Positions 1 to 12,380 of a DNA stretch of 12,380 nt are shown piece after piece. This stretch comes from Candidatus Altarchaeum sp. (lineage in GTDB: Archaea > Altiarchaeota > Altiarchaeia > Altiarchaeales > Altiarchaeaceae), in contig JAGWDQ010000026.1 of assembly GCA_018260615.1 (NCBI GenBank), forward strand, positions 1-12,380. The letters run 5' to 3'. The position numbers and the translations under genes were made by a program. The notes under the pieces are model-generated. The model was given only the letters and a program-made list of their open reading frames with translations. It was not told where the DNA came from and did not search any database. The stretch's first letter is position 1. Each line of letters begins with the position of its first letter.

Positions 1-13
1 GAAGTAATTTAGG

Positions 14-73
14 TTTCAGTATTTAAAAATCTTGCAGATTTTTAAAGATTGAAAACTTGTAGTTTTCAGTATA
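14..73. repeat. Intergenic palindromic repeat (A-tract hairpin family), sister of 8475-8536
   Basis: tttcagtatttaaaaatcttgcagatttttaaagattgaaaacttgtagttttcagtata aligns with 8475-8536 with only a few substitutions and 2 single-base gaps. It contains an 11-bp stem tttaaaaatct-tgc-agatttttaaa (22-46). Confidence 0.85.
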
Positions 74-211
74 GATTTTCAGTAATTCCTACCCGGGAGC
101 AGTTACCTATTTTTTTATTATTTAGCATTTAGTTCTTAATTGTTTTTTGATTATTTAAAATATAAATAACGAATTTTAATTATATGATAAGTTTTTGATA
201 AACCTTTAAAA

Positions 212-853
212 ATGACCGATATCGAAAAAAAATTCGGCTCAATAGAAAATGCTGTTAAGGAAGCAATAAAATTTCACGGGAAATGTAAGTATACGCCCGG
301 AATAATCATCGGTGTTTATATGCTTGATTTCGGATTAAAGAAATTTTATGAAGAATTTAAAGAAAAAGAAGGAAACCCTGTAAGATTTAATGTTGTCTGC
401 GAGACGGATTGGTGTTTGCCTGATGTCTTTCAAATACTGATGCATTTAACGCTTGGCAACAGATATATGCACATAGTAAAGGCAGATGGAAAATTTGCTT
501 ATGCATTATATGACAGAAAAGACGGAAATGGAGTAAGGGTTTTTATAAACCTGGAAAAATTGAACAAAGATGGTGAAATTTATAAATTTTTTACAAGAAC
601 AAGAGACAATATTGTACATACGGATGCAAAAATAAGGTCGTTAAGCAACAGAAAAATTTTCTATGAATACATGGACATTGCAGACAAATTTGAAATTTTC
701 GGTTATAAAAAGGTACATGTTAATATACCTGCAAAAGTAGAATATCTTCCTGCAAAAATTTGTAAAATTTGCGGAGAGTCATTTTTGAGTAAAGACAAAG
801 AAATATGTCTGACATGTTCAGGAGAGAAAAAGGCATACTTTACATATTTATAA
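212..853 (+). CDS. fmdE: FmdE-family protein (formylmethanofuran dehydrogenase subunit E-like) with C-terminal C4 zinc finger
   Basis: N-terminal FHG..PG motif, CETDWCLPDVFQ...TLGN, GKFAYALYDRKDGNGVRVF, and C-terminal CKIC...CLTC. These match the FmdE + Zn-finger subgroup as I recall it. Family-level call only; enzymatic role not established. Confidence 0.8.
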   Translation: MTDIEKKFGSIENAVKEAIKFHGKCKYTPGIIIGVYMLDFGLKKFYEEFKEKEGNPVRFNVVCETDWCLPDVFQILMHLTLGNRYMHIVKADGKFAYALYDRKDGNGVRVFINLEKLNKDGEIYKFFTRTRDNIVHTDAKIRSLSNRKIFYEYMDIADKFEIFGYKKVHVNIPAKVEYLPAKICKICGESFLSKDKEICLTCSGEKKAYFTYL

Positions 854-919
854 AATAAATAAAATAACAATATTTTCCTGACATTGATTTGACATTCTTT
901 ATATAATCCGAATTCTTAA

Positions 920-1004
920 TTATATAAAGTCATAACTCTTAATTATATAAATTCTCAATTATATAAAGTTATAATTATACAAGGTCATAATTATAAAGTC
1001 ATAA
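920..1004. repeat. 16-bp tandem repeat array (consensus TTATATAAAGTCATAA), candidate operator/promoter array
   Basis: Units at 920 ttatataaagtcataa, 943 ttatataaattctcaa, 959 ttatataaagttataa, 975 ttatacaaggtcataa, 991 ttataaagtcataa. The last four are phased at 16 bp and the array ends 24 bp before the ATG at 1029. Confidence 0.75.
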
Positions 1005-1028
1005 ATTAAACATAATTTAAATTTAAAA

Positions 1029-2477
1029 ATGTCCGATACAAAGATGCATTCTGAAAAAAGCAAGGTTATTTGTGTAAATGTTAACGAAGAAACATTAAAA
1101 ATATTATCCTTTATAAAGAATAAGTCAGAATTCATCAGAGAAGCAATAAAGGATAAATTCCTATATGAAAAATTCAGGGAAGAATATATGAACTTGAAAG
1201 AACAAGTTGAAAAACTCAAAGCGGAAAATGAAAAAATAAAGACAGAAAAAAAGACAAAAACAAAAAAAACGGATGAATATGAAAAGAAAATTAAAGAAAA
1301 AGAAATAACTATAGAAAAACCTGAAAAAACTATTGAAAAACAGAAAGAAGAAAGCAAAAATCTTCCGGAAGAAATTGAAAAAGCCAGAATAAAATTAAGT
1401 TACTTTACGCAAAAAGAAAAAGAATATGAGGAAAAAGAGAGAGTAGGAAAAGTGACTGAAAGAGTAAGAGAGATAAAGAAAGAGGAAAAAGCAGCAGAGC
1501 GGATAAATCTTCCAAAAATACCCGAAAAAACAGACATACTAATAAAACAAAAAGAAGAGGAATATGAAGATATGATAAAGAGTATAAAAAAAGAAAATGC
1601 CGTAGTTAAAGACAAACCTGCAAAAGAACCCGATAAAGAAATATTTGAACAAAAAATATTTGAAGATGACACATATAAAAAAATATTTAAATTTAAAGAA
1701 GATAAAATAAAAGATACAAAAGAAAATACAGGAGAAGTCATAGAAAAACCGGATAATAATAAAGAAGAAGAAAATAAACTGGAAAACATAATAAGATATC
1801 CTGAGCAAAAAGAAAAAGTAACAGAGCTGATAAATATTCCAAAAATTGCTGAAAAAAATGAAGTAATGCTAAAACAAAAACAGGATGAATATACTGAGAT
1901 AATAAAAGGAATGAAGGAAGGATGTGCTGTGACTGCGGAAAAACCAAAAGAGCTAAAAAAAGAAAAAAATGAGGTGGAAAATATAGAACCTGAAAAAACA
2001 ACTACGGAAAAAAAGAAAATAATACAGGAACCGGATAAAAAGATATCAGAAGATAATATAATAAAAGATACAACAGAAAAAAGAACAGATGTCGTAGAAA
2101 AATCAAAAGAAATAAGGAAAGAGGAAAAAGCAACAGAGCCGGTAAATCTTCCAAAAATTGCTGAAAAAAATGAAGTAATGCTAAAACAAAAACAGGATGA
2201 ATATACTAATATAACAAAGAGCATAAAGGAAAAGATTATGGTGGATGTGGAAAAACCAAAAGAGATGAAAGAAGATGAAAACGAATTTGAAGAAGTAAAA
2301 ATGGCGGGCTCCCGAAAAATATCCGAGGCGGATTTAATAAAAGGTGCAAAAGAAATTTATAACAAATACAAGAAGCATGGAAAGTCCGCAATTAAAATTA
2401 CGGAAAAATATCTGCAAAAAAGAGGAGTTACTGAGACAAACAAAATTATAGAAGAAGTAATTAAAAACAACAAGTAA
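1029..2477 (+). CDS. Ribbon-helix-helix (CopG/Arc/MetJ-like) protein with coiled-coil and K/E-rich internal repeats
   Basis: Residues ~13-45 KVICVNVNEETLKILSFIKNKSEFIREAIKDKF show an alternating beta strand, helix A and the SEFIREAI helix-B pattern typical of RHH. The rest is highly charged, with three copies of an (I/V)N(L/I)PKI.EK...L.KQK..EY unit. Confidence 0.7.
   Translation: MSDTKMHSEKSKVICVNVNEETLKILSFIKNKSEFIREAIKDKFLYEKFREEYMNLKEQVEKLKAENEKIKTEKKTKTKKTDEYEKKIKEKEITIEKPEKTIEKQKEESKNLPEEIEKARIKLSYFTQKEKEYEEKERVGKVTERVREIKKEEKAAERINLPKIPEKTDILIKQKEEEYEDMIKSIKKENAVVKDKPAKEPDKEIFEQKIFEDDTYKKIFKFKEDKIKDTKENTGEVIEKPDNNKEEENKLENIIRYPEQKEKVTELINIPKIAEKNEVMLKQKQDEYTEIIKGMKEGCAVTAEKPKELKKEKNEVENIEPEKTTTEKKKIIQEPDKKISEDNIIKDTTEKRTDVVEKSKEIRKEEKATEPVNLPKIAEKNEVMLKQKQDEYTNITKSIKEKIMVDVEKPKEMKEDENEFEEVKMAGSRKISEADLIKGAKEIYNKYKKHGKSAIKITEKYLQKRGVTETNKIIEEVIKNNK
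1837..2207 (+). repeat. Intragenic direct repeat: identical 59-bp copies at 1837-1895 and 2149-2207, with a diverged third copy near 1480-1570
   Basis: ttccaaaaattgctgaaaaaaatgaagtaatgctaaaacaaaaacaggatgaatatact is read at both positions and encodes PKIAEKNEVMLKQKQDEYT. Confidence 0.9.
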
Positions 2478-2479
2478 AA

Positions 2480-3712
2480 ATGATTAACAATACTCCCAAT
2501 AAAAACAATACTGAAAATAATGCAAAAAAGGAAAACTGGAAAAATGTATGGCTTTTAAGTACAACCTCTTTGTTAAATGATTTAAGTAAAACACTGCTGA
2601 TGATTGTATTGCCATTTTATTATGATAGTTTGGGATTCTCAAAGTCATTAATGGGATTAATTGAAGGTCTGATGGCAAGTATAGGCAGTTTGGCAAATTT
2701 TGGTACCGGGTATTTATCAGATAAAACAAAAAATGCAAGAAAATACGCAATAATGGGCTATGCCTTACTTCCAATAGCACGACTGTTGCTAATTCCGGTT
2801 CAGACATTATACGGAATAATATTTTTAAGAACGATGAACGGAATCGGAGAAGGAATGAAGGATGCTCCAAGAGATGTCATTCTTACAAATTCGGTAAACA
2901 AAGAAAACCGGGGCAAAGCTTATGGAATACACAGAACACTTCACCAAATCGGAGCAGTTATCGGAACAATTATCGCATTTTTTTTTATAACCTCTTTAAC
3001 ATTTCAGCAAATTTTTTTAATTGCCGGAATTGCCGTTTTTGCAGGTGTCATAATATTGTTCTTTGTAAAAGAAAAAGGAAAGGAAAATGGACAACAAAAC
3101 AAGACATTAAAAACGGCAAATTCAAAAGAAAATTTAATGACCTTGCTGAAAGAAAAAAATTTCAGAAATTTTATCACAATATCAGCAATCTTTTCATTAG
3201 CAAACATAGGTGTATTCTATTTAATGGTTAGAGTTGCAGAATTAGTAAAAACCGGGAATATTGAAATGGTATATGTTCCATTTATTTATCTGCTTTTTCC
3301 ATTGACATTTGCTATTACTGCATATCCTATGGGGTGGCTGTCAGATAAAATTTCAAGAAAGAATATAATAATTGCAGGTTATATTTTATTTGCCTTTTTA
3401 AATATTGGAATTGTCTTTGCAAATTCATTAATTCCAATGATGTTAATATTTGGTTTGTACGGATTATTTTGGTCATCAACACATGCTATGTTAAGGGCAT
3501 TTACAACAGATATTGTCGGAGTTGAAAACAGAGGAAAGGCACTTGGATTGTATCATGCCATAAGCGGATTATTTGTATTTCCGGGTTATATATTTGCTGG
3601 TATGCTGTGGGATAATTTCGGATATATTTACCCTTTTATTTTTGCGTCAACAATTGGAATTGTATGTGCTTTACTTATGTTTGTTTTTGTAAATAGTGAG
3701 AAAATAGATTAG
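2480..3712 (+). CDS. Major facilitator superfamily transporter
   Basis: 410 aa with about 12 hydrophobic segments. Motif A-like GYLSDKTKNARK in the first half and GWLSDKISRK in the second, plus APRDVILTNSV..ENRGKAYG and ENRGKALG loops. Starts 2 bp after the upstream stop. Confidence 0.92.
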   Translation: MINNTPNKNNTENNAKKENWKNVWLLSTTSLLNDLSKTLLMIVLPFYYDSLGFSKSLMGLIEGLMASIGSLANFGTGYLSDKTKNARKYAIMGYALLPIARLLLIPVQTLYGIIFLRTMNGIGEGMKDAPRDVILTNSVNKENRGKAYGIHRTLHQIGAVIGTIIAFFFITSLTFQQIFLIAGIAVFAGVIILFFVKEKGKENGQQNKTLKTANSKENLMTLLKEKNFRNFITISAIFSLANIGVFYLMVRVAELVKTGNIEMVYVPFIYLLFPLTFAITAYPMGWLSDKISRKNIIIAGYILFAFLNIGIVFANSLIPMMLIFGLYGLFWSSTHAMLRAFTTDIVGVENRGKALGLYHAISGLFVFPGYIFAGMLWDNFGYIYPFIFASTIGIVCALLMFVFVNSEKID

Positions 3713-3759
3713 ACCATAAAATGCGTTGAGGGCATATAATAAAAAAATCAGAAGAACAT

Positions 3760-3902
3760 TCACACAAAGTCACCAGGTTACAGAATATAACTCCTTTGTG
3801 TCTCTGTGTCTTGGTGCGATTTTCAAAACGCAGAGTTTTGAAAATATCCGAGCGTTAGCGATGTTAGGAACTAATAAAACGAACTTTCCTGTACGATAAA
3901 AA
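3760..3902 (+). repeat. CACAAAG-arm palindromic repeat plus AATAAAACGAACTTTCCTGT tail, copy A (interrupted); sister copy at 10198-10302
   Basis: cacaaagtcaccaggttacagaatataactcctttgtgtctctgtgtcttggtg and aataaaacgaactttcctgtacgataaaaaa align almost base for base with 10209-10262 and 10272-10302. Lies between convergent genes. Confidence 0.9.
3819..3865 (+). mobile_element. 47-bp double-hairpin unit inserted into repeat copy A
   Basis: attttcaaaacgcagagttttgaaaatatccgagcgttagcgatgtt is absent from the sister copy at 10264 and is homologous to 8284-8329. Confidence 0.7.
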
Positions 3903-3945
3903 ATTATATAATAAAATTCATTAAAATTATATAACAAATCATAAA

Positions 3946-5259
3946 TTAGGCAACTATCTTCACTCCCTTGCATGCCGCATTCGGTGCATAAATCCCGCCT
4001 CTGTTTTCAACATCTTTGTCAATTCCCAAAATTTCCATACCTATAACCTTTCCACTCAACAGAAAATTTTTCAGCGGAATTTTGTTGCCATTTTCAACAT
4101 AAAAGCCCCTGTCAACCTTAACGGAAAATTCAGTTGTTGAAGAATTAGCCGTGTGCATTCCGCTTACCGAACAGACATATATTGCCTTTTTATATTCGTC
4201 AAAAATTTCCTTAACTTTGTTTCTGCTGTCAATAACAATATTGTGAAACCCTGTGGAAGGACTACCTGCTCCTGATCTTGCTGCATTTCCTGTCGGCTCA
4301 GCATTAAATTTCTTTGCCATAGTCCAGTCATAAGCAAAATTTTGGACAACTCCGTCTTTCATCAGCAAATTTTCCCTTGTTTTGCATCCTTCACCATCAA
4401 AAGTTGCAGAATTAACGCCTTTTTTCATTAACGGCTCATCAGTTATTGTCAAATTTAAATTTCCTATACTTTTGCCAATTTTTCCCGCAAGCAATGACTC
4501 ACCTTTGTCAACCGCCTCCGCATCAAAATTATTAACAAACAATGCGAGCAATTCGCTGAATGTCTGCTGATTAAATACAACCACATCGGGAATTTTTTTG
4601 ATTTTTCCCGGATTTAACGAGTCCGTTGCTTTTGTTTTTAAATTTCCCATAAAATTTCCGACATCAAATAAAAACCGTTCTTCTTTTTCATCAATTGCCG
4701 TTGATTTGTCTTTGGCATTACAATTCCCGCTAATGCACAATCCGCTTACCCCGAAAAAAGAGGTCTCCTCCTCGCATTCAACACCCTCCGAATTTACAAT
4801 TTTGCCCGATGCAATTCCGTAATCAATAGACCCTTCGCTCAATGTATTCCTTTCATCAAAAATTTTAAGGTAATCCCTGACATCATCCGGCTCAAAATCC
4901 AGAATTTTTCTGTCAACATCTTTGTATTTTTCTTTATTCGCCTCCGGAAGCCCGTAAAAATCAACCGGCTTTGAGAGTTTGGCAATCGTAACCGCTCTTT
5001 TTACAATGCCATCATCTAATTTATTTGATAAGACATATCCCTGTTTTTTGCCAGTAAATATCCTGAATCCGACATTAAAACCGGTTGCACTTTCAACTGA
5101 ACTGACTGTGTTTTTATGTAAATTTGCCGTTGTGCCGTTTGCCTGATACACATAAATTTCACAGTCACCGAATTTACTGCCCTGTTTTATAATCTTTTCT
5201 ATTTTTTCGTCATCAAACGCAAAAGATGTTTCCTTCTCTTTTATTGTGCGATTCTTCAT
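3946..5259 (-). CDS. pmbA: TldD/PmbA family protein, PmbA (TldE)-type
   Basis: FDGEG motif, GNAARSG...PST, VSGMHTANSSTTEFSV and N-terminal EIYV...G..GFRIF. No HExxxH, which points to TldE/PmbA rather than TldD. ATG at 5259 chosen over the TTG at 5271 used by the ORF track. Confidence 0.85.
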   Translation of the reverse strand: MKNRTIKEKETSFAFDDEKIEKIIKQGSKFGDCEIYVYQANGTTANLHKNTVSSVESATGFNVGFRIFTGKKQGYVLSNKLDDGIVKRAVTIAKLSKPVDFYGLPEANKEKYKDVDRKILDFEPDDVRDYLKIFDERNTLSEGSIDYGIASGKIVNSEGVECEEETSFFGVSGLCISGNCNAKDKSTAIDEKEERFLFDVGNFMGNLKTKATDSLNPGKIKKIPDVVVFNQQTFSELLALFVNNFDAEAVDKGESLLAGKIGKSIGNLNLTITDEPLMKKGVNSATFDGEGCKTRENLLMKDGVVQNFAYDWTMAKKFNAEPTGNAARSGAGSPSTGFHNIVIDSRNKVKEIFDEYKKAIYVCSVSGMHTANSSTTEFSVKVDRGFYVENGNKIPLKNFLLSGKVIGMEILGIDKDVENRGGIYAPNAACKGVKIVA

Positions 5260-5309
5260 TCTATTTGACAATTATTATATAAAAATCACATACTTTGTTA
5301 TATAAAACA

Positions 5310-5924
5310 TTATTTAAATTTCATATTATTTTTAAATTTCAGATAAAACCATATAACAAATATTATTACTGCTAAAATAAATACATAGTCCAATATAGAT
5401 GTGTATTGCTCAATCATAGACCAGTTCTGATTTAAGAGGTATCCCAAATATACCAAAATACCGCACCATATAAATGAGCCGACAAAAGTATATAAGGAAA
5501 ATTTTTTAATGTCCATCCTCGCGATTCCTGCCGGAAAAGAAATCAGATGCCTGACAACGGGAACAAACCTCGCTATAAAGACCGCCTTTTCGCCGTGCTT
5601 TTGGAAAAAATTTTCTGTTGTCGTCAAATGCCCCCCGGTTATTAATACATATTTTCCATACTTTAAAATAAATGCCCGTCCAAAAATTTTGCCCACATAA
5701 TATGAAAATAGTGACCCTATAAGCGAACCAATCGCTCCTGTCAGTATAACTGCCAGCATATTTAATTTCCCGTCATAAACCAAAAATCCTGCAAAAGGCA
5801 TAACTACCTCGCTTGGAACCGGAAGTGCTGTTGATTCCATTGCCATAAGTATAATTATTCCCGCATATCCTGCCTGCTCAATAAAATTGACACAAAAATC
5901 AAATATTGGCTCTATAAGACTCAT
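5310..5924 (-). CDS. dedA: DedA family membrane protein
   Basis: MAMESTALPVPSEVVMPFAG, GSLFSYYVG, FFQKHGEKAVFIARFVPVVRHLISFPAG..RM are canonical DedA motifs. Confidence 0.93.
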   Translation of the reverse strand: MSLIEPIFDFCVNFIEQAGYAGIIILMAMESTALPVPSEVVMPFAGFLVYDGKLNMLAVILTGAIGSLIGSLFSYYVGKIFGRAFILKYGKYVLITGGHLTTTENFFQKHGEKAVFIARFVPVVRHLISFPAGIARMDIKKFSLYTFVGSFIWCGILVYLGYLLNQNWSMIEQYTSILDYVFILAVIIFVIWFYLKFKNNMKFK

Positions 5925-6068
5925 TATTTTTTAGTTATATATAATAAATTAAACCTTCAAACAAATAATTAACAAAATTTAAAAATTTTTTATTTAGTTT
6001 TTATTTAATATGGCGTTCTAATTTATTATATAGAAAATTTAAAACATAAAATCCTAAAAATTTTAAAA
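5925..6068. promoter_or_regulatory. Divergent AT-rich promoter region (dedA / dnaG)
   Basis: 144-bp gap between divergent genes with TATA-like ttatatataa (~5935-5944) and ttattatata (~6023-6032). Position-based inference. Confidence 0.45.
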
Positions 6069-7286
6069 ATGTCAAAAGCACCAGCAGATACGATAAAATA
6101 TATTATACACGCAGATGTGTCAATAGACGGAGTAGTTGATAAGCCGGATGTTGTAGGAGCAATCTTCGGACACGCCGAGGGTTTGCTTGGAGAGGATCTG
6201 GAACTCAGGGATCTGCAAAAAACAGGAAGAATCGGTAGAATTGAAGTAAACATAAATTCGGTTGCAGGAAAGTCAGTGGGAAAAATAATTGTGCCATCCA
6301 GTTTAGATGTTGTTGAGACATCAATTATTGCCTCTGCGGTTGAGATGGTTGACAGAGTCGGCCCATGCGGAGCGGCAATCAGAATTATAGATATTGAAGA
6401 TACACGGTCAGCCAAAAGAAAAAAAATAATTGAGCGGGCAAAAGAATTAGTTAAAAAAATGATTATTGAACAGATTCCGGACAGTCAAAAGATAGAAGAA
6501 GAAGTTAGAGGTATGGTTCAGACAAGTCAGATTATTACTTATAAAGGGCTTCCGGCGGGTTCTGAAATAGAAACATCTGAAATAATGATAATAGTTGAGG
6601 GCAGAGCGGATATTTTAAATCTTCTTAAAGCGGATATTAAAAATACAATTGCAGTTGAAGGTACAAATGTTCCCGATGTGGTTTCTGAATTAACAAAAAA
6701 GAAGTCCGCGATTGCGTTCTTAGACGGTGACAGGGGAGGGGATATTATATTGAAAGAGCTTCTTCAAAAAGCGGATATTGACTATGTTGCAAGAGCACCA
6801 AGAGGAAGAGAGGTTGAGGACTTAGGAAAGAAAGAAATAATAATGGCATTAAGAAAGAAAATTCCTGCAGCACAATTAAGACAGGAAGAAACAAACCGGA
6901 CCGAAACAGGAACCGGACAACGGGTAAGAGAACATTCATTTCCGTTACCTGTAAAACCACAGGAAAGACCACCTGTGGAAGAACCAAAGGAAGATCCCGA
7001 GATAAAAATAAAAAATATTCTGCTGGAACAATTACAGAAAACCAAAGGCAGTTTAATGGCAAAATTATTTGATAAGGAAATAAAAATGATAACGGAAATT
7101 GAAATTAAGGATATGCTGACAACAATTCAGTCCATAAAACCACATGCTATTGTTTTTGACGGGATAATAACCCAGCGACTAATAGACGGGGCTGCTGAAA
7201 ACGGAGTAAAATATATTGCGGGAATTAATCAGGCAATGATATCAAACGCAAAGGAGATAAGTATAATACTTGAGAAAAGGCAATAA
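6069..7286 (+). CDS. dnaG: Archaeal DnaG-like protein (TOPRIM; exosome-associated in studied archaea)
   Basis: [48 protein letters not shown]-terminus, [20 protein letters not shown]...AVEG and [21 protein letters not shown]. Confidence 0.96.
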
Positions 7287-7384
7287 GGAAATTTAATATT
7301 TAAGGACTAATTAATAAATTTAATATATAAAAATAAATTTAATAATAAGGAAATTTAATATTTAATATATAAGGACTAATTAAT
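7282..7384 (+). repeat. Local direct duplication spanning the dnaG stop
   Basis: aataaggaaatttaatatttaa at 7282-7303 and 7344-7365; taaggactaattaat at 7301-7315 and 7370-7384. Confidence 0.75.
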
Positions 7385-7424
7385 TAAAAAAAATATTAAT
7401 TAAAAAATTTAAAAAATATGTAAA

Positions 7425-8006
7425 ATGGGAGAACTAACAGAGTCGGAAAGGGTAGAGATTGAATCAAAAAGGGAAATTATAGATAGTGTACCAAAGGTTA
7501 TTGTCTATGGGGGAATATCAGTAATGGTTTGGATTTTTACAATGCTTGTATATATACCATTAGGCGGAAGTTTGATGCTTGCAGAGGGTTTAAGCGTGGC
7601 GAATATTATTATGATTGTTGGATTTGTGGCATTAGTATTTTTTACATACAAGATTTTAAGAGAAATAAGAGATATTGCCAATGCTATCGGAGGATTGATT
7701 GCGGTGAAAAGTGGCGCATCCGGAGCAAGTAAAGAAGAAGTTGAACATATGCAAACTGCTGTGAGAGGAGTTGTATATGCAATTGTTGGTACGATAATGT
7801 TTGTGTTCCTGACAAGTGTTCTTAGGGGCTTAAATATAGGTGGATATACAAATTTAGGGCAAATGATTGTAGGAATTGGTTTAGTTGTGATGTTTATATG
7901 GGTAATTTTCCTGCTATACAGATCCGGAATGGCGGTATCCAAGGAATTAGAGAAATCAGCACACGAAAAAGCGGCAAAGATGCTGGAAGAGGCAGCAAAG
8001 GACTGA
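7425..8006 (+). CDS. Uncharacterised 4-TM membrane protein
   Basis: 193 aa, aaaATG start, four hydrophobic segments arranged as two hairpins, each followed by an amphipathic helix. No family recognised. Confidence 0.8.
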   Translation: MGELTESERVEIESKREIIDSVPKVIVYGGISVMVWIFTMLVYIPLGGSLMLAEGLSVANIIMIVGFVALVFFTYKILREIRDIANAIGGLIAVKSGASGASKEEVEHMQTAVRGVVYAIVGTIMFVFLTSVLRGLNIGGYTNLGQMIVGIGLVVMFIWVIFLLYRSGMAVSKELEKSAHEKAAKMLEEAAKD

Positions 8007-8040
8007 TGAGATTAGGAGATGAGATAAAAACAGGCAATCT

Positions 8041-8110
8041 GTTTTTTATCTTTTTTCTTTATTTCTTTAAAACATTAAAAGGCAATAACTTTATTTTTAT
8101 ATTTTTTATT
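8041..8110 (+). terminator. Probable oligo-T archaeal terminator region
   Basis: Several T6-T7 runs (gttttttatcttttttctttatttcttt...tatttttatattttttattt) 35-100 bp after the stop at 8006. Confidence 0.45.
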
Positions 8111-8179
8111 TATTATTCGGGCAATTAAAATAATTTAGTTAGCACTCAAATATTTTTAATAAATTTAAAAAATAAGTTA

Positions 8180-8536
8180 AGTTCGTTTCACCCTCATTTT
8201 TAAATCGCAGAGATTTGAAAATCTCCGAACGAAGTGAGGTGAAGATTTAAAAATTTCCGAGCAATATCAAAAATGCTTCAAGCATTTTCAAATCGTAGAG
8301 ATTTGAAAATCTCCGAACGAAGTGAGGTGATTTTTGAATATCCCAAAAATCCTGTAGATTTTTGCGATAGTAAAAATGCTTCAAGCATTTTTAGTATCCT
8401 AAAAACCTTGAAGGTTTTTACGACAGCGAGGTGATTTAAAAATCTTATAAATTTTAAAGATTGAAAACTCATATTTTCAGTATTTAAAAATCCTGTGGAT
8501 TTTTAAAGATTGAAAATCTTGCAGATTTTCAGTATA
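8180..8536. repeat. Nested cluster of palindromic repeats (REP/BIME-like mosaic)
   Basis: Two 46-bp double-hairpin units (8196-8241, 8284-8329), a tandem ~56-bp two-hairpin unit (8268-8370 and 8371-8426), a split GAGC..GCGA module (8244-8263 + 8423-8437), and tandem A-tract units (8434-8481, 8482-8532). Confidence 0.9.
8284..8329 (+). mobile_element. 46-bp double-hairpin unit inserted into a pre-existing hairpin
   Basis: Flanked by ATTTT at 8284-8288 and 8330-8334. Removing 46 bp restores the perfect stem tcaaaaatgct-tca-agcatttttga, whose intact sister is at 8371-8393. Confidence 0.75.
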
Positions 8537-8553
8537 TTTTTAATAAACTAAAA

Positions 8554-8835
8554 ATGGTAAAAAGTTATAACCAAAGGATTAAAGGAATTTTAGTATATTC
8601 TGTCTTACTTGCAATAATCACCTTAATATACTTTTATTTTGGGAAATTTTGGGAATTTATGTCAAAAATTTCATTTTTAAATGTAAATATTGTTATTCCC
8701 GTAACAAATTTTGTAAATTTAAACGGCAAGGAAATAATAATTGCAGGACTATTATCCGCAGGACTTATAATAGGAATAATTTTACTTTACTTAATAGGAA
8801 ATCAAATTTTAAAACTATTAGAGAAACAAAAATAA
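8554..8835 (+). CDS. Small 2-TM membrane protein, unknown function
   Basis: 93 aa, aaaATG start, two hydrophobic segments, positive C-tail. Confidence 0.7.
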   Translation: MVKSYNQRIKGILVYSVLLAIITLIYFYFGKFWEFMSKISFLNVNIVIPVTNFVNLNGKEIIIAGLLSAGLIIGIILLYLIGNQILKLLEKQK

Positions 8836-8845
8836 AAAAAATAAG

Positions 8846-9040
8846 ATGAAAATAACCGTTGAAATTGGCGATAAAAATGCTAAATTAATAGGAAAATTTT
8901 TGTTTGCATTAGGGGGATTTTTTGTTTTGATGGCATTAATGTCGGTAGCAACAACATCACTTATATTTCCTTCCCTCATTCTTAGCGTATTGGGAGGAAT
9001 ACTGCTGCTTTCGGGACTTTTTCTGATGATGAAACATTAG
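8846..9040 (+). CDS. Small 2-TM membrane protein, unknown function
   Basis: 64 aa, 10 bp after the previous stop, two hydrophobic segments. Confidence 0.65.
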   Translation: MKITVEIGDKNAKLIGKFLFALGGFFVLMALMSVATTSLIFPSLILSVLGGILLLSGLFLMMKH

Positions 9041-9156
9041 AGGGGTTTTGTGAATAATTGGTTCCAGGTTAAATTTTAGCTGTTTTATTTAATTCTTTTA
9101 AAATTTCATGATTCAGAGTATAATTTTTAATATATAATTTGGTAAAATTTAGCAAA

Positions 9157-10158
9157 ATGGCAATAGAACAGGCAATAGGTGCAATAGGACTTGGATTGTT
9201 CCAGCTTGTAGTTGGATTGATATTAGCAATAGCATGTATATATGTCGGATTTAGTTTGTTTGATAAAATATTAAAAGAAATTGATCTGCAGGAAGAGTTA
9301 AAGAGAGGAAATATCGCAATTGGAATTGTAACTGTGGCAATAATGATAACACTTGCAGGAATAATTAGCGGAGGTGTTAGCGGAATTACATCTGGCATAT
9401 CCAATATATCGGGGATGAATGTTGCGGATATACTTGTTAAAGTCGTTGTCCCCGGAATTGTACAGCTGATCATAGGAGTTGTGCTTGCAGTGGCGGCAAT
9501 TTATATGGCATTTAAGATTTGGGGCAAGATAACTGCAAAAATAGAAGAAACCGACGAACTAAAAAAGAATAATGTTGCAATTGGTATTGTTATGGCAGGT
9601 GTATTAATAGCAGTCGGATTTGTTATTCAGAGAGCAATAGGTGGAATTGGAGCGGCTATTACAACATTGTCGGTTGTTGGGATAGTGCTTGGATTACTTC
9701 AACTCGCAATCGGATTAATATTGGCAATGGCATGCATATATCTTGGATTTAGTTTGTTTAATAAAATACTGACAGAAATTGATTTACAGGATGAATTAAA
9801 CAAAGGAAACACCGCAGTTGGAATTGTATCCGCAGCAATAATGATAACATTGGCAGAAGTGATTGGAAGTGCTGTTAGTGGCATTACATCAGGACTGTTG
9901 GGAAAAGAGATGAATTTTATTGGTGCGATAGTCGGAGGTGTTGCTCAGTTAATAGTCGGAATCATATTTGCAGTTATTGCGATATACATAGCATTTAAGA
10001 TTTGGGATAAGATAACTGCAAAAATAGAAGAAGCGAGTGAATTAAAGAAGAATAATGTTGCAGTTGGCGTCGTTATGGCAGGCGTATTGATATCAGTCGG
10101 ATTTGTTATTCAGGGAGCAATCGGGGGAATCGGAGCAGGAATTGCAGCAGCATTTTAA
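9157..10158 (+). CDS. DUF350 (YjfL/UPF0719-like) membrane protein with four repeat units
   Basis: Four (D/E)..(E/D)EL(K/N)(R/K)(G/N)N.A(I/V)GIV motifs, each followed by hydrophobic helices. Two ~161-166 aa halves are visibly duplicated at DNA level (offset 498 then 483 bp). ATG at 9157 (aaaATG) preferred to the TTG at 9139. Confidence 0.85.
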   Translation: MAIEQAIGAIGLGLFQLVVGLILAIACIYVGFSLFDKILKEIDLQEELKRGNIAIGIVTVAIMITLAGIISGGVSGITSGISNISGMNVADILVKVVVPGIVQLIIGVVLAVAAIYMAFKIWGKITAKIEETDELKKNNVAIGIVMAGVLIAVGFVIQRAIGGIGAAITTLSVVGIVLGLLQLAIGLILAMACIYLGFSLFNKILTEIDLQDELNKGNTAVGIVSAAIMITLAEVIGSAVSGITSGLLGKEMNFIGAIVGGVAQLIVGIIFAVIAIYIAFKIWDKITAKIEEASELKKNNVAVGVVMAGVLISVGFVIQGAIGGIGAGIAAAF

Positions 10159-10188
10159 AAATCTCCGAACATCTGAGAGTTGATTTTA
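10157..10188 (+). repeat. Degenerate copy of the mini-hairpin module abutting the DUF350 stop
   Basis: aaaaatctccgaacatctgagagttgatttta versus consensus aaaatctccgaacgaagtgaggtgattt. Confidence 0.55.
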
Positions 10189-10197
10189 AAAGAATGC

Positions 10198-10302
10198 TCA
10201 CACAAAGCCACAAAGTCACCAAGTTATAGAATATAACTCCTTTGTGTCCCTGTGTCTTGGTGTGAGAGAACAATAAAACGAACTTTCCTGTGCGATAAAA
10301 AA
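10198..10302 (+). repeat. CACAAAG-arm palindromic repeat, copy B (uninterrupted)
   Basis: Arms tcacacaaagccacaaagtcaccaag / ctttgtgtccctgtgtcttggtgtga around a 16-nt spacer (10224-10239), then the tail shared with 3873-3902. Confidence 0.9.
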
Positions 10303-10358
10303 GTATATTTTATCCCCCTTATCTTTTTTGTAATTGTTTAGATAATTAAAATGTAATT

Positions 10359-10563
10359 CCTCACACGGAGACACAAAGAACTATGATATATATACTCTGT
10401 CACCTCACTTCGTTCGGAGATTTTCAAATCTCTGCGATTTGAAAATAAATTCGCTTCGCTCTCATTTTTTAAATCTCAAAGATTTAAAAAATCTCCGAGC
10501 AACAGCGAGATGATATTTTCAAAACTCTCCGTTTTGAAAATGGCTCTGTGACTTTGTGTGAGG
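10359..10563. repeat. CACAAAG-arm repeat, copy C, carrying a 149-bp cassette of hairpin modules
   Basis: 20-bp arms 10359-10378 and 10544-10563 (16/20 inverted match). CTCTGT is duplicated at 10395-10400 and 10544-10549. The insert contains a reverse 46-bp unit (10401-10446), a GAGCGAAGCGA module, and hairpins at 10466-10490 and 10516-10540. Confidence 0.85.
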
Positions 10564-10600
10564 TTTTTTTAAAAGACTGATAAAAACAAAAATTAGACAT

Positions 10601-10678
10601 AAAATTATTGTAACTACTCACAGGTTAACAAAATTTACCTGTAATTTTTTGGGAGGGTGAGTAGTTACAAATTATTTT
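10601..10678. repeat. MITE-like inverted repeat (TTGTAACTACTCAC / GTGAGTAGTTACAA)
   Basis: Perfect 14-bp inverted repeat at 10608-10621 and 10657-10670, extendable imperfectly to ~21 bp. Related partial copies at 10720-10741 and 97-106 (gagcagttac). Confidence 0.75.
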
Positions 10679-10794
10679 CTCTGTGCCTCTGTGGTGCTAA
10701 ACAAATACTCTTTTTTTATTTGTAACTCTCATACAGGTAATTCACAGAAGTAGGTTATATAACCCTGTATGATGAATTTATATATTATTTCTTT

Positions 10795-12060
10795 TCACAT
10801 CCCCACCTCTATCTTCACATTCAACCTGTTTTCCAATCTTTCCTTTATTTCAGAAATTTCTATTTGCAGATTTAGAATGCCTTTCTCAAATCGTTCCGCA
10901 TCTTTTTTATTTTGTTCAGTCCTTATGTTTATATCGGCAATGCATGTTTCGGTCCTTTTTATTTCATCCCTGACATCGTATCTCTTAATATCCTCATTAG
11001 TCCTTTTTTCCTTTTCCAAAATTTCTTTATACCTTTTCTTTTCCTCAACAATGACTGAAAAGTCCTTTTCATAAGTCAAAATTTTCTCCTGCTCGTCTTC
11101 GTTCAAACCGGCAGGCAGTTTCAGGAAATTTAATAGTTCATTGTCATCCCTTTCAAGGAAAATCTTCGGATTGTCTATATAAAGAGAAATTTCCATTATG
11201 TTATTTTTCCTCCTTATCTTTTTCAATATCCTGCCGGCTGAAGAAATTTTTGAATAAATGCTGCTTTCTATTCTGTCCTTCTCTGTTAGAATTTTACTTT
11301 GCTCATTCAGTGCATCATTCATTAATTTAAATTTTTCCGATTCTTCCAGTTCTTTCTGTCTTTCCTGATGCTCTTGCAGTTCTCTCTCAAAGTCAATTAA
11401 TGAATTTTTTATTTCCGCAGTCGCTTTCTTCTCGCTGATGAATGTATTAAATTTGTCATCAAGAATTTTGTGTTCTTCATATTGTTCAATATTCATTTTA
11501 TTTAAATCCATCGCATTATTAGCAAGTATTTTTAAATTTCTCCTGAAATTTTCCATCTGGGAATGTGCAGCAGCAACATATCTGCCGTATTGTATATCCG
11601 TCTCTCCGCAGGTATGTGCAATTTTAAAAATTAACGACTTTATTTCGGAAATATTTGCATCTTTGTCTATCTCCGTATTCAGCACATTTTCCATAATTTT
11701 GATGAACATATTCTTATTGCTCTGCACAATTCTTTCTGCTCTTTTATTTGGCATATTACTAATTTTTTCTATTCTAATTTCTTCAACAATGTTTTTCATA
11801 TTTTTCATAGACCTCATACATTCGTCAATTAATGGCATTGCTTTCTCTTTTGTTGCATTTTCATCTTTTTCCTGCTTTTTCTTTATAAAAGCATCCAAAT
11901 TTTTATACAAAATTTTCTCCCTGTCTGATTTTTCTAAATTTTCATTGTTTTTATTTGTTTGTTCTGCCTGTTGTTTTCCTGCGTGCCTTTCTTCCGTTTC
12001 TTTTCCTTTTCCAAAAATTTTACCCAAATCTCCCAAAATCTGTGTGAATTTACCGCTCAT
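10795..12060 (-). CDS. Uncharacterised predominantly alpha-helical / coiled-coil protein (421 aa)
   Basis: Long K/E-rich ORF with heptad character. ATG at 12060 (aacaaacATG, MSGKF...) preferred because the upstream extension to 12237 crosses a TATA box, the IS end and tnpB. No Walker A or other catalytic motif seen. Confidence 0.8.
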   Translation of the reverse strand: MSGKFTQILGDLGKIFGKGKETEERHAGKQQAEQTNKNNENLEKSDREKILYKNLDAFIKKKQEKDENATKEKAMPLIDECMRSMKNMKNIVEEIRIEKISNMPNKRAERIVQSNKNMFIKIMENVLNTEIDKDANISEIKSLIFKIAHTCGETDIQYGRYVAAAHSQMENFRRNLKILANNAMDLNKMNIEQYEEHKILDDKFNTFISEKKATAEIKNSLIDFERELQEHQERQKELEESEKFKLMNDALNEQSKILTEKDRIESSIYSKISSAGRILKKIRRKNNIMEISLYIDNPKIFLERDDNELLNFLKLPAGLNEDEQEKILTYEKDFSVIVEEKKRYKEILEKEKRTNEDIKRYDVRDEIKRTETCIADINIRTEQNKKDAERFEKGILNLQIEISEIKERLENRLNVKIEVGM

Positions 12061-12175
12061 GTTTGTTGCGTTTAATTTTAGTATTGTTAGATGCAATTTA
12101 TGTTGAATTATATAATTGGCAAAACCTACTTTGAGTGATTTCGCTTTCTTTTCAGAATGCGAATTTGTCAGATTT

Positions 12176-12380
12176 TCAATATACCTCCAATCTAACCGGA
12201 TGACACCCTGCACCCTGTATTCCATTTGCGAACGCATTTGGAAATGCTTTCTTTATTATGTTGTAAGCACCATTTAAAAATCCTTTGAGGATTTTTAAAT
12301 CTCCGAACGAAGTGAGGTGATTTACATCAGCATTTATGATTTTGCCCGATAATGTTTTAAACAATCCTCTGCAAATTCTC
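12176..12380 (-). CDS. tnpB: RNA-guided endonuclease TnpB (IS605 OrfB/IS1341-type), C-terminal fragment with a 16-aa in-frame insertion in RuvC-III; possibly inactive
   Basis: Minus frame from 12379 reads RICRGLFKTLSGKIINADVN[HLTSFGDLKILKGFLN]GAYNIIKKAFPNAFANGIQGAGCHPVRLEVY*. Without the bracket this is the familiar R..RGLF.S..G..INADVNGAYNI..K.FP.AF..GI.G...HP TnpB tail. Confidence 0.88.
   Translation of the reverse strand, partial: RICRGLFKTLSGKIINADVNHLTSFGDLKILKGFLNGAYNIIKKAFPNAFANGIQGAGCHPVRLEVY
12272..12319 (+). mobile_element. 48-bp double-hairpin unit inserted in tnpB
   Basis: Flanked by ATTTA at 12272-12276 and 12320-12324. Contains a 12-bp stem (12273-12299) and a 27-mer (12297-12323) identical to 8307-8333. 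Confidence 0.85.

Follow-up and report, generated by a model that had tools for sequence, protein, structure and literature searches.

The locus at 8267-8337 of a contig of the groundwater archaeon Candidatus Altarchaeum sp. (JAGWDQ010000026.1, C26 in our numbering; its positions 1 to 12,380 constitute the whole stretch analysed, hereafter the window) raises the question of whether the 46 bp at its centre have been inserted into an older hairpin and, if so, what determines the sites at which such insertions occur. The assembly comprises 2.23 Mb, has a GC content of 33% and is 87% complete, and the PmbA protein encoded in the window shares 80-81% identity with proteins of Candidatus Altarchaeum/Altiarchaeales MAGs. 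Tiny hairpin repeats that are mobile although no transposase can be recognised are turning up across many lineages. The Altiarchaeum units are a good test case, having base-exact boundaries in 32 targets, a simple target rule and a strand-specific tail. Besides disrupting tnpB genes and CRISPR repeats, the units cause assemblies of ecologically important subsurface archaea to break up.

A 46-nt unit inside a host hairpin

The segment 8267-8283 reads TCAAAAATGCT-TCA-AGC, i.e. the 5' arm of a host hairpin, its loop TCA and the first 3 nt of its 3' arm. The remainder of this arm, ATTTTTGA, has been displaced to 8330-8337 by the 46-nt block ATTTTCAAATCGTAGAGATTTGAAAATCTCCGAACGAAGTGAGGTG, which is composed of two parts, ATTTTCAAATCGTAGAGATTTGAAAAT and CTCCGAACGAAGTGAGGTG (Table 1). 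ATTTT is present at both 8284-8288 and 8330-8334, resulting in a 5-nt ambiguity in the cut point. As the first-pass annotation had claimed for this ATTTT-bounded unit, excision of 8284-8329 yields a hairpin, TCAAAAATGCT-TCA-AGCATTTTTGA, in which all 11 stem positions are paired (11/11) around the loop TCA, and the intact sister that it had pointed out at 8371-8393 is indeed an uninterrupted paralogue of the host hairpin, TAAAAATGCT-TCA-AGCATTTTTA. Hairpin restoration by itself is weak evidence, because the region is so palindrome-rich, and a scan in which any 40-52 nt of the window were deleted was unusable as a null, since it counted palindromes already touching the junction. The decisive evidence is instead the existence of the empty junction as real DNA: the unit-free junction of 8284-8329 was found at 14 other genomic sites, the best of which (C148) is 100% identical over 47-50 nt. 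Of the composite GAGCAATATCAAAAATGCTTCAAGC/ATTTTTGAATATCC (here and below, a slash within a sequence context marks the insertion point), the genome contains 6 copies with the unit and at least 11 copies lacking it.

The host hairpin belongs to a family of the form AAAATGCT-TNA-AGCATTTT, for which 87 matches were obtained with both strands counted. The position AGC/ATTTT in this family is a hot spot for units, because at least five different unit variants occupy it at different loci. The first 5 nt of ATTTTTGA are identical to the first 5 nt of the unit and can pair with the unit-internal AAAAT, lengthening the tail stem. In the predicted DNA fold of 8267-8337, both ATTTT copies are used in three hairpins arranged in series (-13 kcal/mol, z = -3.6). 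Logan contigs of two groundwater metagenomes are the only public-run holders of the stretch; the joint 8283 to 8330 that skips the 46 nt is present in them and is indistinguishable from paralogous empty sites. Among the public runs, no RNA run was listed as containing the stretch.

The right end of the unit had also been deduced from a copy in a tnpB gene, and this correspondence is borne out, as the units at 12272-12319 and 8284-8329 both end in GTGAGGTG. The five empty copies of the tnpB insertion site match at 100% over 50 nt.

The surroundings of the unit are themselves layered. The nested cluster 8265-8423 lies entirely within the loop of a single split tail module, 8255-8433, which occurs elsewhere in the genome in unsplit and partly filled forms and has the context CTCCGAGC/AACAGCGAGG, with about 80 empty copies. 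The first inner layer of the cluster is a double hairpin of ~57 nt (ATATCAAAAATGC...TTTTTGCG) that recurs in other tail loops, also before an A, and from this placement, one insertion machinery may be common to several module families. A further composite structure is an element of ~150 nt with the inverted motifs CACAAAG and CTTTGTG, present at 3757-3925, at 10198-10308 and in many other genomic copies; units are often found in it at GTGCG/AG, and it is missing 3' of pmbA in a relative. In two relatives, the orthologous intergenic region measures 60 and 143 bp and is without the entire cluster 8160-8535.

Table 1. Units, host hairpins and tail modules in the window
Feature	Position	Strand	Basis or context
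46-nt double-hairpin unit	8284..8329	+	sequence; 14 empty-site matches; family structure and covariation
Hairpin 1 of that unit, ATTTTCAAATC-GTAGA-GATTTGAAAAT	8284-8310	+	sequence
Tail mini-hairpin of that unit, CTCC-GA-AC-GAA-GT-GA-GGTG	8311-8329	+	sequence
Host hairpin 5' arm, TCA and AGC; insertion point AGC/ATTTT	8267..8283	+	sequence; hairpin family matches
Remainder of host 3' arm, ATTTTTGA	8330..8337	+	sequence; DNA fold
Intact sister hairpin	8371..8393	+	sequence
Second 46-nt unit (96% identity), AAGATTT directly 3'	8196..8241	+	in loop of host hairpin ATTTTTAAATC...GATTTAAAAAT; context ATTTAAATCGCA/AAGATTT
Outer tail module, 5' half, TTCCGAGC plus AA	8255..8264	+	read from sequence
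Outer tail module, 3' half, CA plus GCGAGGTG	8424-8433	+	read from sequence
48-nt unit in tnpB gene (gene on minus strand), flanks ATTTA and ATTTA	12272..12319	+	2 filled (C26, C42) versus 5 empty copies
Diverged 47-nt unit in repeated ~150-nt element	3819..3865	+	target GTGCG/AGGAAC, only A common to unit; 13 empty copies, one at window 10251-10289
46-nt unit, reverse orientation, 98% identical to 8284-8329	10401..10446	-	sequence comparison
49-nt unit variant, ATTTTTTAAATCT-CAA-AGATTTAAAAAAT plus CTCCGAGCAACAGCGAGATG	10464..10512	+	target CTCTC/ATATTTTC; 13 empty copies

Structure and distribution of the unit family

A structural scan of the assembly identified 417 tail-like motifs; in 284 cases, a hairpin is anchored immediately 5' of the motif, and these represent units, with lengths peaking at 46-48 nt. 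Each unit consists of a variable, covarying, AT-rich hairpin (hairpin 1) and a constant tail mini-hairpin, xTCC-GA-NN-GNA-NN-GA-GGTy, with a GNA or ANA triloop. With few exceptions, hairpin 1 is perfectly paired, but its sequence varies across 169 distinct units: stem positions 5, 6, 9, 10 and 11 each exhibit three Watson-Crick pair types with 85-94% pairing, and the stems show little G.T wobble (at most 6%). In the tail, x and y form a Watson-Crick pair in 90% of the units, with four pair types, and the inner two pairs covary (AT with GC, CG with TA) without pairing having been imposed in the scan. This covariation establishes the structure of the unit. Predicted by nearest-neighbour DNA parameters, the tail hairpin has no unusual stability (z = -1.2); because this energy is not outstanding, the case for the tail hairpin rests on covariation.

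The tail also retains a T.T mismatch in 164 of the 169 units, as well as tandem G.A and A.G (151/169 and 159/169, respectively). On the opposite strand, G.A and T.T would read C.T and A.A, and the tail is thus strand-specific. Because these non-canonical features are present on one strand only, they point to folded single-stranded DNA (RNA less likely) as the recognised form, and the conserved mini-hairpin is probably where a protein binds.

The endpoints proposed for the two units of the window prove to be common genome-wide. ATTT is found at the start of 212 of 231 non-redundant units, and the ...GGTy end is followed by A in 186 of the 187 non-redundant units of up to 52 nt and in 30 of 31 units in relatives. 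For the internal AAAAT, two pairing partners are available, the ATTTT of the unit itself and a flanking ATTTT. Hairpin-only, tail-only and mixed module combinations are also present in the genome; therefore, recombination between modules also shapes the pattern. Head-to-tail arrays of five to six identical units were observed on the minus strand of C15 (9284-9524, 48 nt x5), C111 (22936-23124, 47 nt x5-6) and C124 (22500-22788, 48 nt x6), and the GGTy/ATTT junctions between the units of such arrays are themselves ideal targets.

The unit family is confined to the genus Ca. Altiarchaeum, and the field for a comparative enzyme search is narrowed accordingly. Allowing at most one mismatch, the tail motif was found 134 times in this assembly and 102, 43 and 26 times in the other three genus genomes, compared with 0-2 times in each of 57 other genomes of the class and 0 for a reversed control pattern. 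Viral contigs contain four exact tail matches, none of them in a hairpin context, a number that we estimate to be about that expected by chance for a collection of this size. No match at the gathering score was obtained in Rfam 15, which returned only two sub-threshold plant miRNA matches, and a limited literature search yielded no description linking Altiarchaeales to such repeats.

Target sites of the units

Non-self empty counterparts were identified for 97 units and were resolved into 32 independent target contexts, including tnpB coding sequence, the loops of other units and of tails (nesting), the ends of the ~150-nt element and a CRISPR repeat. Many filled copies have spread passively within larger repeats, and the independent events are therefore fewer than the copies. 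Comparison of the filled and empty sites demonstrates insertion with exact boundaries: exactly one unit is added per event, and there is no duplication beyond the common A or ATTT. The base following the unit (+1) is A in 32/32 contexts, against a local background of 32% (p = 1e-16). To the left of the insertion, position -3 is a purine in 27/32 contexts, -2 is never A and -1 is G or C in 23/32, the commonest trinucleotides being GTG, GCG, AGC and AGT. The requirement is therefore a purine/not-A/(G or C) trinucleotide to the left of the insertion and an A to its right, and matching of the ends is a preference, not a rule.

This result modifies the proposal of the first-pass annotation, namely that units insert at ATTT(A/T) matching their own left end and are thus guided by homology or base pairing. 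The bias towards ATTT, for which a check of the flanks had been suggested, is clear: ATTT lies 3' of the unit in 14/32 contexts (44%), compared with 8% of neighbouring background A's (p = 5e-8). Where unit and target both have ATTT, the fifth base agrees in 23 of 37 cases versus 15.4+-2.5 after shuffling (P = 0.003), and loci of three relatives point in the same direction (9/14 versus 6.7, P = 0.07). The preference for ATTT(N) thus stands, but matching does not extend to all targets, since 18/32 (56%) are non-ATTT (AGAG, AGCA, AACA, AAGT, ATGT and others) and have only A or AT (1-2 nt) in common with the left end of the unit, nor to the sixth base, at which unit and target show no agreement above chance. 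With 56% of the targets having no more than A or AT in common with the unit, pairing with the target cannot be a requirement. The left target motif is likewise not homologous to the unit, and in 20/32 contexts the left junction has no backward microhomology (0 nt); on the right side, microhomology ranges from 1 to 9 nt. Sequence cannot distinguish homology from base pairing: the 3' arm of the unit complements its left end, and any flank identical to the left end can therefore also pair with the internal AAAAT. Location in the 3' arm of hairpins, for which a test had been suggested, is not general. When the folds were read by eye, 3-4 targets were assigned to a 3' arm, and other targets to loops (~6), the 5' foot (~7), positions directly after another tail (4) and positions outside hairpins (~9).

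Three unit variants (45, 42 and 45 nt) occupy one position, GTTTAAATCGCACT/ATGTAGTATGGAAAC, in a CRISPR repeat, at minus-strand offsets 7765 and 7887 of C109 and plus-strand offset 19470 of C136, respectively. Two of three consecutive repeats on C109 are split by units, and intact arrays of the same repeat are present on C73, C139 and C88. On the plus strand of C67, at ~1190, a unit was found by eye at GAGC/ATTT, which corresponds to the opposite-strand ATG of a P-loop gene (ParA/MinD-like, ...VVITGKGGVGKT), and the terminal AAAT of this unit rebuilds the start codon of the gene.

Mode of spread and comparison with known elements

No Y1 transposase (PF01797) was detected in the four genus genomes (65-87% complete), whereas 6 of 14 control genomes matched. 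In this assembly, searches for the RVT_1 reverse transcriptase and for Rep_OBD were negative, as were those for Viral_Rep and Y2 (IS91-type), both of the latter being performed without a positive control.

On balance, 8284-8329 is probably a non-autonomous mobile micro-element of a 46-48-nt class that entered the 3' arm of an older AT-rich hairpin, following the target rule described above, by single-strand nick-and-join catalysed in trans. Such an element would be defined by its structure on one strand, i.e. the variable, perfectly paired AT-rich hairpin together with the constant tail mini-hairpin. An enzyme supplied in trans would bind the tail hairpin and cut 5' of an A, and the single-stranded nick-and-join would place one unit between purine/not-A/(G or C) and A. 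The internal AAAAT, located in the 3' arm of hairpin 1, could have the ATTTT of the unit itself or that of the target as its partner, which would align the target and favour such sites. Our inferences here concern the single-stranded nature of the intermediate, the guide-like role of the pairing and the type of enzyme. In our view, one-sided homology, exact boundaries and a structured tail abutting the right cut together favour an IS200/IS605- or REP-like nick-and-join over microhomology-mediated template switching.

Template switching would operate without an enzyme: after a stall at hairpins, the nascent strand would switch to an array or another copy via ATTT microhomology, copy one unit and return. 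The varying length of the right-side microhomology (1 to 9 nt), the exact unit-length tandem arrays that are possible donors (C15, C111 and C124) and the negative transposase search all count in favour of this route. We give it some weight but do not think it likely, as the boundaries are identical in 32 contexts with an invariant A at +1, the left junction shows a motif and not homology (0 nt of matching microhomology in 20/32), and the non-Watson-Crick features conserved in the tail hint that a protein recognises it. It is less likely still that the 46-nt unit does not transpose as such and that the pattern is a mosaic generated by recombination or gene conversion among larger composites with ATTTT/AAAAT junctions in common. 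Clean empty counterparts of units situated in non-repeat contexts (the coding sequence of tnpB, CRISPR repeats and sites close to genes) and the occupation of one target by different unit variants argue against such a mosaic, although the composite holding the 8284-8329 insertion is itself repeated 6 times, hairpin 1 is also found tail-less and joined to other modules (C87, C101 and C60), and one filled copy (C79) carries the same hairpin with a different tail type.

Spread through RNA, in which the unit would be transcribed, reverse transcribed from priming at an A/T-rich nick and inserted, draws on the resemblance of the one-sided microhomology at the ATTT end to target-primed synthesis. The assembly contains no RVT_1, the stems have little G.T wobble (at most 6%), and neither a poly-A or other RNA hallmark nor an Rfam match was found, making this route highly improbable. 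The reverse polarity is scarcely credible, i.e. that the ancestor carried the 46 nt and that the empty hairpins are products of deletion by slippage between the ATTTT repeats. A 5-nt direct repeat does flank the unit, and repeat-mediated deletion has been documented in haloarchaea (PMC3119063), but a deletion is not expected to leave a perfect 11/11 palindrome by chance, unit-free members of the host hairpin family are widespread, the same unit occurs in unrelated contexts, and many targets have just a 1-nt repeat.

On a further reading, the unit could be a minimal self-guiding DNA element, in which one 5-nt guide within it (the ATTTN/NAAAT arm of the variable hairpin) would set both its own end and the target through base pairing and the tail would recruit a nuclease/ligase of a new, non-Y1 archaeal family. 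We consider this reading unlikely. If true, it would make the variable hairpin a programmable address and would explain both the varied yet perfectly paired stems and the agreement between unit and target at position 5.

REP/PATE, SMR, SDR and mitochondrial double-hairpin elements are the closest analogues of the units. For the REP system, a structure of REP-TnpA is reported (PMC3479197). The REP/BIME and REPIN elements of bacteria and their RAYT (Y1 HUH) transposases have been described by Bertels and Rainey (2011, PMC3116915), a paper that also cites the small dispersed repeats of Nostoc. Like REP/REPIN, the units are short, hairpin-forming and mostly extragenic, occur in hundreds of copies, form mosaics and arrays, and presumably provide a single-stranded hairpin substrate. 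Unlike them, the units are archaeal, have no RAYT/Y1 in the four genus genomes (65-87% complete) and lack the conserved GTAG/CGTC tetranucleotide that marks the foot of the imperfect REP palindrome, GTAG occurring only by chance in the loop of the 8284-8329 copy. In addition, their stem varies while the separate tail hairpin is constant, and they insert precisely into genes and other repeats.

For PATEs, the IS200/IS605 background of the comparison is reportedly that of Barabas et al. 2008. These palindrome-associated transposable elements, which derive from IS200/IS605, have been described in Haloquadratum (PMC3119063). The units share with PATEs the lack of terminal inverted repeats and of target duplication, a hairpin at each end, and orientation-specific insertion beside a short target resembling or pairing with the element sequence. 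The units differ in being 46-48 nt long, in having hairpins that abut the cut sites and are not subterminal, and in their degenerate target (A, often ATTT). PATEs insert 3' of a fixed target of 4-5 nt that pairs with a guide in the element; for the units, A is the invariant base, with ATTT at 44% and fifth-base agreement at P = 0.003. The unit ends are also unrelated to the resident tnpB element (right end ...GAAATCACTC), and no TnpA was found. The SMR-A elements of Haloquadratum walsbyi (~110 bp) have prominent inverted terminal repeats, are >95% conserved, insert preferentially into palindromes of PATEs and IS605 elements, and are mobilised in a manner described as 'enigmatic' (PMC3119063). 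Similar to SMR-A, the units are archaeal and transposase-free, generate no target duplication and frequently insert into palindromes; unlike SMR-A, they measure 46-48 nt and have no terminal inverted repeats, and their stems are hypervariable.

SDR1-8 of Nostocaceae, reportedly described by Elhai et al. 2008 (Genome Res 18:1484), are said to be cyanobacterial mobile repeats of 21-27 nt that nest in one another and in hairpins. By this account, the units resemble SDRs as very small mobile repeats nesting in each other and in hairpins and differ from them in length, host and sequence. Double-hairpin elements of Allomyces mitochondrial DNA were reportedly the subject of Paquin, Laforest and Lang 2000. 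Among the GC clusters of yeast mitochondria, GC42 inserts at, and duplicates, an AG target (PMC4478555). These Allomyces and yeast elements and the units have in common a size of tens of nt, two hairpins, occurrence as singles and tandem arrays, a target of 1-2 nt and no assigned enzyme; the mitochondrial elements are organellar and, in yeast, GC-rich, whereas the units reside in an archaeal chromosome, are AT-rich and carry a conserved GA/GNA tail.

Several other identities and candidate mobilisers were rejected. The units are not MITEs, as ATTTT... and ...GAGGTG at their two ends do not form inverted repeats and there is no duplication beyond the common A or ATTT. They do not conform to an archaeal bulge-helix-bulge intron (two 3-nt bulges, 4-bp helix, intron start/3' exon), because ATTT at the unit start cannot pair with ATTT of the flank. 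The assembly encodes nine tnpB-like genes. The unit is not the end of a tnpB transposon: eight aligned right ends stop at ...GAAATCACTC, which is not unit-like, and no tail was found at a consistent offset from tnpB genes. The assembly has one IS110-type (DEDD) transposase gene (C73:1-1300), and nothing visible connects it to the units. Its end consists of a GTAAAGCAAAA tandem repeat extending across an assembly gap, and a 7-repeat CRISPR array is located on the same contig. The 480-aa ORF at 10795-12237 was likewise dismissed as a candidate transposase, being single-copy and coiled-coil-like with only its first 35 codons repeated. These codons (12133-12237, minus strand) are repeated because they belong to the tnpB element, at its right end (...GAAATCACTC), and the start of this ORF is therefore a chimera made by transposon insertion.
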